Positions 7,375 through 9,002 of a DNA stretch of 16,521 nucleotides are shown piece after piece; within the stretch, counting starts at the first letter, position 1; each line of letters opens with the position of its first letter. Both the position numbers and the translations under genes were made by a program. Source of the stretch: a virus (lineage: Duplodnaviria; Heunggongvirae; Uroviricota; Caudoviricetes); IMG/VR virus record IMGVR_UViG_2740892014_000012; one strand, 5' to 3'. The notes under the pieces are model-generated. The model had not been told where the DNA came from and did no database searches. It was given only the letters and a program-made list of their open reading frames with translations.

Positions 7375-8304
7375 ATGGCAAACACTGCTGAGATATTCAA
7401 TTTTCCAGTGCCGGATGCGGCACAAAAGGAGCCGCGCGTGGCAGATCTCGATGATGGTTATACGCGCATTGCAAATGAGTTGCTGGAAGCTGTGATGCTG
7501 GCCGGATTAACACAGCACCAGCTTCTGGTCTTTCTGGCTGTCATGCGCAAAACATATGGCTTTAATAAAAAACTGGATTGGGTTAGCAACGAGCAACTTT
7601 CCGAATTAACCGGGATATTGCCGCACAAGTGTTCTGCTGCAAAAAGTGTTCTGGTAAAGCGTGGGATTTTTATTCAGAGCGGGCGGAATACCGGCATTAA
7701 TAATGTGGTCAGTGAATGGTCAACATTACCCGAATCAGGTAAGAAAAATAAAGTTTACCTGAAAGAGGTAAATTTACCTGAATCAGGTAAAAAAAGTTTA
7801 CCCAAATCAGGTAAAGGCGTTTACCCGAATCAGGTAAACACAAAAGACAAACTAACAAAAGACAATATAAAACCTTTTTCGTCCGAGAATTCTGGCGAAT
7901 CCTCTGACCAACCAGAAAACGATCTTCCTGTGGTGAAACCGGATGCTGCAATTCAGAGCGGCAGCAAGTGGGGGACAGCAGAAGACCTGACCGCCGCAGA
8001 GTGGATGTTTGACATGGTGAAGACCATCGCGCCATCAGCCAGAAAACCGAATTTTGCAGGGTGGGCTAACGATATCCGCCTGATGCGTGAACGTGACGGA
8101 CGTAACCACCGCGACATGTGCGTGCTGTTCCGCTGGGCATGCCAGGACAACTTCTGGTCCGGTAACGTGCTAAGTCCGGCCAAACTCCGCGACAAGTGGA
8201 CCCAACTCGAAATCAACCGTAACAAGCAACAGGCAGGCGTGACAGCTAGCAAACCAAAACTCGACCTGACAAACACAGACTGGATTTACGGGGTGGATCT
8301 ATGA
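7375..8304 (+). CDS. O: Replication initiator O (309 aa from the proposed start)
   Basis: From the ATG at 7375 (GGGAGG SD 5 nt upstream) the N-terminus MANTAEIFNFPVPDAAQKEPRVADLDDGYTRI aligns with lambda O MTNTAKILNFGRGNFAGQERNVADLDDGYARL. The C-terminal part resembles the lambda O P-interacting domain. The ORF-track start at 7285 is an in-frame upstream extension overlapping the preceding stop (ATGA). Confidence 0.88.
   Translation: MANTAEIFNFPVPDAAQKEPRVADLDDGYTRIANELLEAVMLAGLTQHQLLVFLAVMRKTYGFNKKLDWVSNEQLSELTGILPHKCSAAKSVLVKRGIFIQSGRNTGINNVVSEWSTLPESGKKNKVYLKEVNLPESGKKSLPKSGKGVYPNQVNTKDKLTKDNIKPFSSENSGESSDQPENDLPVVKPDAAIQSGSKWGTAEDLTAAEWMFDMVKTIAPSARKPNFAGWANDIRLMRERDGRNHRDMCVLFRWACQDNFWSGNVLSPAKLRDKWTQLEINRNKQQAGVTASKPKLDLTNTDWIYGVDL
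7726..7880 (+). repeat. Replication origin: five about 17-bp dyad iterons (TTACCYRAAWSAGGTAA) plus an A-rich tract, inside O
   Basis: Iterons at 7726..7742, 7755..7771, 7774..7790, 7798..7814 and 7821..7837, each with TTACC..GGTAA dyad symmetry, followed by A-rich ACACAAAAGACAAACTAACAAAAGACAATATAAAACC. Same architecture as ori-lambda. Confidence 0.8.
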
Positions 8305-9002
8305 AAAACATCGCCGCACAGATGATTAACTTTGACCGTGAGCAGATGCGTCGGATCGCCAACAACATGCCGGAACAGTACGACGAAAAGCCGCAGGTAC
8401 AGCAGGTAGCGCAGATAATCAACGGTGTATTCAGCCAGTTACTGGCAACTTTCCCGGCGAGCCTGGCTAATCGTGACCAGAACGAACTGAACGAAATCCG
8501 CCGCCAGTGGGTTCTGGCTTTCCGGGAAAACGGGATCACCACGATGGAGCAGGTGAGCGACGGAATGCGTGTTGCCCGTCGGCAGAATAGACCATTTCTG
8601 CCATCACCCGGGCAGTTTGTTGCATGGTGCCGGGAAGAAGCATCCGTTACCGCCGGGCTGCCAAACGTCAGCGAGCTGGTTGATATGGTTTACGAGTATT
8701 GCCGGAAGCGTGGTCTGTATCCGGATGCAGAGTCTTATCCGTGGAAATCAAACGCGCACTACTGGCTGGTTACCAACCTGTATCAGAACATGCGGGCCAA
8801 TGCGTTGACTGACGCGGAATTACGGCGCAAGGCTGCCGATGAACTGGCCTGTATGACCGCGCGAATTAACCGTGGTGAGGCTATACCTGAACCAGTAAAA
8901 CAACTTCCTGTCATGGGCGGTAGGCCTCTAAATCGTGCACAGGCTCTGGCGAAGATCGCAGAAATCAAAGCTAAGTTCGGGCTGAAAGGAGCGATGAAAT
9001 AG
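8301..9002 (+). CDS. P: Replication protein P (DnaB helicase loader), 233 aa
   Basis: MKNIAAQMINFDREQMRRIANNMPEQYDEKPQVQQVAQIINGVFSQLLATF... is near-identical to lambda P as recalled. ATGA overlap with the O stop. Confidence 0.96.
   Translation: MKNIAAQMINFDREQMRRIANNMPEQYDEKPQVQQVAQIINGVFSQLLATFPASLANRDQNELNEIRRQWVLAFRENGITTMEQVSDGMRVARRQNRPFLPSPGQFVAWCREEASVTAGLPNVSELVDMVYEYCRKRGLYPDAESYPWKSNAHYWLVTNLYQNMRANALTDAELRRKAADELACMTARINRGEAIPEPVKQLPVMGGRPLNRAQALAKIAEIKAKFGLKGAMK

Follow-up and report, generated by a model that had tools for sequence, protein, structure and literature searches.

A lambda-like O-P replication module with a non-lambda origin type in the early region of an Escherichia coli prophage

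Genes O and P and their surroundings

The stretch of DNA analysed here, 16,521 nucleotides long and referred to as the window, contains the early region of an E. coli lambdoid prophage inserted beside icd, and many E. coli chromosomes from human isolates are 100% identical to it. The replication module under study extends exactly from the start codon of O (7375) to the stop codon of P (9002). Its features and neighbours are as follows.

First in the early-region gene order: int, xis; then exo, bet, gam
5655-6410, minus strand: S24 repressor
6449-6679: YdaS/Cro-like HTH gene, 76 aa, in the cro position
6749-7288: YdaT-domain gene, 179 aa, in the cII position
7372-7400, minus strand: promoter-like site, TTGAAT-17-CATAAT (tentative, from a consensus scan)
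7375-8304, plus strand: gene O, replication initiator, 309 aa (Pfam, TIGR and PHROG matches)
7375-7725, plus strand: N-terminal origin-binding domain of O, aa 1-117, of a non-lambda specificity type (from identities to lambda, GZ7 and P22)
7878-8304, plus strand: C-terminal domain of O, lambda type, aa about 168-309 (140 of 142 residues as in lambda O)
8301-9002, plus strand: gene P, DnaB helicase loader, 233 aa, its start overlapping the O stop codon (ATGA)
8993-9002, plus strand: replaced last codons of P, GAMK-stop in place of GASV-stop, at the left edge of a cargo insertion that replaces ren
After O and P: 1421-aa inverse autotransporter, alpha/beta hydrolase, nin genes

The cro and cII positions (6449-7288) are occupied by the YdaS-like and YdaT-domain genes, which replace the lambda-type cro and cII; the YdaT-domain gene is labelled 'cII' in phage records.

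Gene O is assigned as the initiator from its matches to Pfam PF04492 (Phage_rep_O; E 1.1e-33, 116 bits against a cut-off of 28.7), which places the N-terminal domain, to TIGR01610 (phage_O_Nterm; 3.2e-23, 82 bits against a cut-off of 45.5) and to PHROG 277 'replication initiation O-like' (1e-163). A sequence search of the PDB with O gave no solved relative. Identification of its start codon is complicated by the fact that PGAP and phage records begin O at an ATG at 7285, giving a protein of 339 aa that overlaps the stop codon of the YdaT-domain gene. We prefer 7375, because the methionine encoded there lines up with Met1 of lambda O as well as with the first residue of O in Klebsiella phage GZ7, where the upstream DNA is unrelated, because GGAGG lies 6 nt 5' of this codon, and because the Pfam domain begins only at residue 51 of the long form. 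The automated start probably sits 30 codons too far upstream.

Gene P is close to its lambda counterpart throughout (97% aa, 225 of 231 residues identical, same length). It matches Pfam PF06992 (Phage_lambda_P; E 3.4e-61) and PHROG 109 'P-like helicase loader', and aligns end to end with the loader in solved loader-helicase complexes, PDB 8v9t ('Helicase loader', 3e-150) and 6bbm. With 97% identity to a protein that has been solved together with DnaB (6bbm, 8v9t), P would be expected to bind host DnaB and deliver it.

On the opposite strand, the promoter-like site at the start of O has nearly the same hexamers as lambda pO, the oop promoter (TTGAGT-17-CATAAT), which lies at the equivalent place. 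A hairpin follows at 7338-7306 that is strong (z = -2.2) and has a poor U tract. An oop-like RNA (7306-7400, minus strand), antisense to the 3' end of the YdaT-domain gene, could be made from this site, and we offer this only tentatively. With Rfam at gathering thresholds, no oop-like or other known RNA was called anywhere in the window.

Iterons and the identity step inside O

Five exact matches to the 17-bp sequence TTACCYRAAWSAGGTAA lie on the plus strand inside gene O, and there are no others in the 16.5 kb. The mean number of matches expected by chance is 0.01 (200 dinucleotide-preserving shuffles), and no shuffle reached the 8 matches observed when both strands are counted. The array and the tract that follows it are laid out thus.

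7726-7742: iteron 1, TTACCCGAATCAGGTAA, frame 0, 29 bp upstream of iteron 2
7755-7771: iteron 2, TTACCTGAAAGAGGTAA, frame +2
7774-7790: iteron 3, TTACCTGAATCAGGTAA, frame 0
7798-7814: iteron 4, TTACCCAAATCAGGTAA, frame 0
7821-7837: iteron 5, TTACCCGAATCAGGTAA, frame +2
7838-7877: AT-rich part of ori and junction zone, GC 0.26 (39 bp, 7838-7876), its first bases forming the ACACAAAAGAC box

Each copy is a palindrome with TTACC and GGTAA arms (TTACC-N7-GGTAA). Start-to-start spacings are 29, 19, 24 and 23, the last three mirroring the 20, 24 and 23 of lambda. The array is collinear with lambda's annotated iterons and is followed, as there, by an AT-rich tract, so that the origin lies inside the initiator gene. 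Lambda, 434, VT1-Sakai, PhiR12_1 (one mismatch), GZ7 and P22 all have the ACACAAAAGAC box at the head of this tract in almost unchanged form. An earlier note on this DNA had described five iterons differing from those of lambda, and we find the same: the copies match exactly, share 40% DNA identity with the lambda iterons and have a different consensus. Our literature search found no paper characterising this iteron type. Phage 82 is said to have five repeats; in the search for a classical phage with the iteron type of the window, no phage 82 ori record was matched in the phage collection, and the literature searches were likewise without its sequence.

Since the repeats are also coding sequence, they might be a mere by-product of a low-complexity linker peptide (LPESGKK) and not sites for protein binding. 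Three of the five do encode LP(E/K)SGK in frame, giving LPESGKK twice and LPKSGK once in O, and PMC6022878 regards the linker of lambda O as flexible. The other two, however, are in frame +2 and encode quite different peptides, VYLKEVN and VYPNQVN. The use of two reading frames indicates that it is the DNA repeat that is conserved, with the PESGKK peptide as its by-product, and together with the palindromic form of each repeat it implies selection on the DNA. The linker explanation also has to contend with the spacing of 19, 24 and 23, a copy of the lambda pattern, and with the position of the repeats exactly where lambda's iterons are annotated, with the same AT-rich box next to them. Moreover, both number and sequence of the repeats are kept in Klebsiella phages despite a differing peptide (68% aa). 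We consider an origin of the repeats in the peptide highly improbable, and treat them as iterons below.

Global alignment of the O-P region with that of lambda (NC_001416) gives the following identities.

DNA, N-domain, 7375-7725: 52.7%
DNA, iterons: 40%
DNA, AT-rich tract, 7838-7876: 77%
DNA, O C-terminal domain, 7877-8304: 97.0%
DNA, P: 94.6%
O protein, residues 1-117: 48%
O protein, residues 118-155: 18%
O protein, residues 168-309: 99%

Identity thus shows one sharp rise: it goes from about 50% to 97% over the 40 bp of 7838-7877, against 434 and VT1-Sakai as well as against lambda. The earlier note had proposed modular exchange at the domain boundary inside O, with a diverged N-terminal DNA-binding region and a C-terminus and P close to lambda, and had named a sliding-identity comparison with lambda as the check. 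All of this is borne out by the one step within 7838-7877, by the values on its two sides (48% aa and 52.7% DNA for the N-domain; 99% and 97% aa for the O C-terminus and P) and by the swapped left and right partners described below. Its placing of the junction near the iterons and linker needs amending: the junction is near them, but to the right of the last iteron, and all of the PESGKK segment falls in the left, non-lambda module. Identity to GZ7 extends as far as 7867, and 7877 is where the last of the clustered differences from lambda falls. The sequence alignments place the crossover at about 7867-7878, and no finer; the junction falls in the AT-rich section of ori directly after iteron 5, at about codons 155-168 of O.

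Further evidence for a join comes from the partners of each half. In an alignment of eight O genes, used to compare types of N-domain and iteron, three unrelated N-domain plus iteron types are found joined to the same lambda-like O C-terminus and P, and N-domain and iteron type co-vary across the three.

Lambda type (lambda and 434, four iterons each; VT1-Sakai, six): TCCCTC..GAGGGA
PhiR12_1 type: GTCAC..GTGAC repeats
Window type: TTACC..GGTAA

The PhiR12_1 type, third beside those of lambda and the window, has this C-terminus and P at 96.5% identity. Conversely, Klebsiella phage GZ7 has the N-domain type of the window (82% aa up to the junction), five iterons of the same consensus at the identical spacing of 29, 19, 24 and 23, the AT-rich ACACAAAAGACAAAC..ACAAAAGACAATA tract and the ACACAAAAGAC box, whereas its O C-terminus is unrelated after codon about 164-165 (16% aa) and its next gene encodes a DnaC-like loader. 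Among 80 GZ7-like loci in IMG/VR, the partner is DnaC-like in 61 and a distant P-like protein, only about 35% identical to lambda P, in 19. In these 19 the match to GZ7 is limited to the first 88 residues of the O C-terminal region, which suggests a second exchange point in them near the extreme C-terminus of O. Four GZ7-like loci in IMG/VR have 7 iterons.

Could the left half simply have diverged in place, the O N-half and iterons changing by rapid co-evolution while the C-half and P were conserved, with no recombination at all? In favour of this, N-domain and iterons have to change together, and the homology of the N-domain to that of lambda can still be recognised (48% aa). Such divergence would nevertheless have to account for a change from about 50% to 97% DNA identity within 40 bp, synonymous sites included, for the occurrence of the same N-domain and iteron type in Klebsiella phages with an unrelated C-terminus and other loaders, and for the PhiR12_1 type of N-domain on the same C-terminus and P. 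The panel of O genes already indicates incongruent trees for the two O halves. We give divergence in place almost no weight, and favour recombination between a left part and a right part of O.

The only sequence common to all types around the junction is ACACAAAAGAC, and this box is a plausible candidate for the crossover site. One further O gene was considered as a second recombinant, with its exchange within the N-domain. That of phage D2 (OM475427, L008, 501-1432) has a window-type first 246 nt, the rest being lambda-type with lambda iterons, and is annotated as two CDS. It is frameshifted by a 32-nt net duplication in a record described as a 'partial genome', which leaves two readings, a broken recombinant and a chimera assembled from two prophages. 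It was not used.

Distribution of the module and condition of the prophage copy

One of the closest relatives among isolated phages is Escherichia phage PhiR34_1, a deposited complete genome whose record gives E. coli K-12 MG1655 as host. Its O is 100% identical to that of the window and its P 99.1% identical, with two amino acid changes and a difference in the two C-terminal residues. This suggests that the same O and ori may work in a living phage. Some 16 more phage isolates have the complete module at 96-97%, among them 4A7, Lambda_4C10, 1W, 3W, Perceval, Turner, IdasGreatGrand and several PhiR phages. PhiR34_1, PhiR68_2 and the other phages named share with the window both the whole module and a YdaT-type gene upstream of it; in them P ends in GASV-stop and is followed by ren, whereas in the window the sequence from the last 10 nt of P onward is adhesin cargo. 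A literature search for papers on the closest phages (4A7, Lambda_4C10, PhiR34_1, Perceval) gave nothing relevant.

Uniform identity to one known phage across all of O and P had been named in the earlier note as the finding that would speak against a mosaic. Formally such identity exists, to PhiR34_1 and PhiR68_2 (99.6% over 1618 aligned bases, O 100%), but it leaves the mosaic relation to lambda intact and points to an old, fixed and widespread module, not one specific to the window. The module is present in 2308 of 5426 complete E. coli genomes (about 43%), counting matches that cover at least 80% of O-P; lambda-type O stops at 71-72% and is left out by this threshold. The laboratory type of lambda is thus not the commonest type in E. 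coli. IMG/VR has at least 588 relatives of the N-domain; the best 80 are 97-100% identical to it, and 76 of these 80 have the strict five iterons. All 74 contigs among them with a near-identical N-domain and enough sequence have the lambda-like O C-terminus and P, so that no ongoing reassortment was seen among near-identical N-domains (74 of 74 informative contigs among the best 80 relatives). We conclude that the join is old, and that the combination is now a stable unit, found very commonly among the lambdoid phages and prophages of E. coli. The module is already known, in that it has been deposited many times and its biology is long established. That O of lambda has two domains, and that specificity can be exchanged within its gene, goes back in the literature to 1978 (Furth and Yates 1978, cited in PMC6022878).

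The sequence immediately to the right of the module is less usual. All phage matches end at 8992, ten bases before the stop codon of P. The place of ren is taken by an AT-rich leader (GC 0.35), followed by a 4.3-kb gene for a 1421-aa inverse autotransporter adhesin (8993-13517). In this protein an IAT_beta domain (E 5.6e-101) is combined with Invasin_D3/Big_1 repeats; its gene contains three 357-bp tandem copies of 98% identity at 10561-11623. No match to the segment 8993-13517 was found in 50,697 phage records, and at least 80% of the window is covered in 378 E. coli genomes. We read the segment as probable adhesin cargo, a 'moron' that occupies the position of ren; it is the most unusual feature near the O-P module, though outside it. 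Between the adhesin gene and the nin genes, on the minus strand, lies a 347-aa alpha/beta hydrolase gene (BD-FAE/Abhydrolase_3, 13554-14597) which, unlike the adhesin gene, is also present in phages such as 4A7 and PhiR47_2.

These changes bear on whether the module still drives replication in this host or survives only as an inactive relic of a prophage that is itself defective. P has a changed 3' end, ren has gone, and the adhesin gene in its place is absent from the phage records; in some genomes IS elements are found in this region, one having IS1 between pieces of O and P. Both reading frames are intact in the window, however, and the other early genes (int, xis, exo, bet, gam, repressor, nin) are complete. 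O and P are those of PhiR34_1, at 100% and 99.1%, with the C-terminus differing only in the last two residues of P. A relic seems unlikely to us, though we regard it as more probable than either of the alternatives weighed above. With cargo in the place of ren and two altered residues at the end of P, there is no guarantee that this copy is functional.

Proposed mechanism and comparison with other replication modules

We interpret the locus as a lambda-type theta-replication initiation module with non-lambda origin specificity, an old two-part mosaic joined in an AT-rich segment, and put the probability of this reading at about 0.9. The left part would comprise the N-domain and its cognate iterons, in a clade that takes in the Klebsiella phages and, at a greater distance, gene 18 of P22; the right part would be the O C-domain and P, of the lambda, 434 and Stx-phage type.

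The mechanism proposed is drawn by homology from lambda, what we present here being features of the sequence. Dimers of the O N-terminal domain would bind the five TTACC-N7-GGTAA iterons within gene O, and the resulting nucleoprotein complex would strain and open the adjoining AT-rich stretch at 7838-7876. The lambda-type C-terminal domain of O would then recruit the P-DnaB complex, P would deliver the host DnaB helicase to the opened origin, and P would be released by host chaperones, as in lambda. In lambda O the N-terminus binds DNA and the C-terminus binds P, with a flexible linker between them, as set out in section 3.2 of PMC6022878 (citing Furth and Yates 1978, Wickner and Zahn 1986). 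The same section assigns P binding to this C-terminal domain, and a domain predicted to bind P is present in the O of the window, which shares 140 of its 142 residues there with lambda. It also describes lambda-phi80 and lambda-82 hybrids that swap specificity inside O. O-like proteins differ along with the specificity of their origins, and in each of lambda, P22 and L the protein recognises a set of repeats of its own, situated in the gene that encodes it (PMC8022706); that O of the window likewise binds its own iterons is suggested by the co-variation of N-domain and iterons across the three types.

The locus is a clean textbook case of an initiator gene with origin recognition and iterons on one side and partner recruitment on the other. 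For prophage typing, and for predicting replication interference among prophages resident in one host, two separate markers should be used: the N-domain of O plus the iterons, and the C-domain of O plus P. On a more tentative note, TTACC-N7-GGTAA may be a specificity that is biochemically uncharacterised yet dominant in E. coli lambdoid prophages, at 43% of complete genomes, and ACACAAAAGAC a shared crossover site coupling one origin-recognition unit to at least three helicase-delivery systems (lambda P, DnaC-like and distant P-like, with DnaB-type gp12 in the P22 relative). We regard this broader proposal as possible, with the balance somewhat against it.

Comparison with P22 places the left half in a wider family. 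Salmonella P22 gp18 has a related N-domain (46% aa over a 188-residue N-terminal alignment), and the DNA of gene 18 is 71% identical to the window, closer than that of lambda. The P22 origin repeats have TTTACC/GGTAAA half-sites and the same ACACAAAAGACAATA box as the window. There are, however, four of them, and their spacer is shorter. The C-terminus of gp18 shows no relation to that of O in the window, and gp18 is paired with a DnaB-type helicase, gp12, and not with a P-type loader. No gp12-like match was found by tblastn in 160 related loci, and the partner in the window is lambda-type P, not that of the P22 18/12 type.

The Stx phages 933W, P27 and VT1-Sakai resemble the window in having a lambda-like C-terminus and P and more than four iterons, but differ in that their N-domain and iterons, in six copies, are of the lambda type. 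Four of the six Stx iterons are bound well, whereas the extra upstream ones are bound weakly yet are required (PMC7466680). These extra upstream iterons are analogous to iteron 1 of the window, and their weak but necessary binding may, by this analogy, be relevant to it.

With lambda itself the window shares gene order, the overlap of O stop and P start, an ori within O, palindromic iterons followed by an AT-rich tract, and the iteron spacing. It differs in having five TTACC-N7-GGTAA iterons where lambda has four of TCCCTC-N5-6-GAGGGA, and in its flanks, lambda having cII upstream and ren downstream and the window a YdaT-domain gene and no ren. The iteron segment and N-domain fall outside the lambda/434/933W origin specificity group, with its TCCCTCAAAACGAGGGA iterons, in DNA identity (40%), in protein identity (48%) and in consensus. 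The module therefore stands outside the lambda origin specificity group, although it is predicted to work like a member of it.
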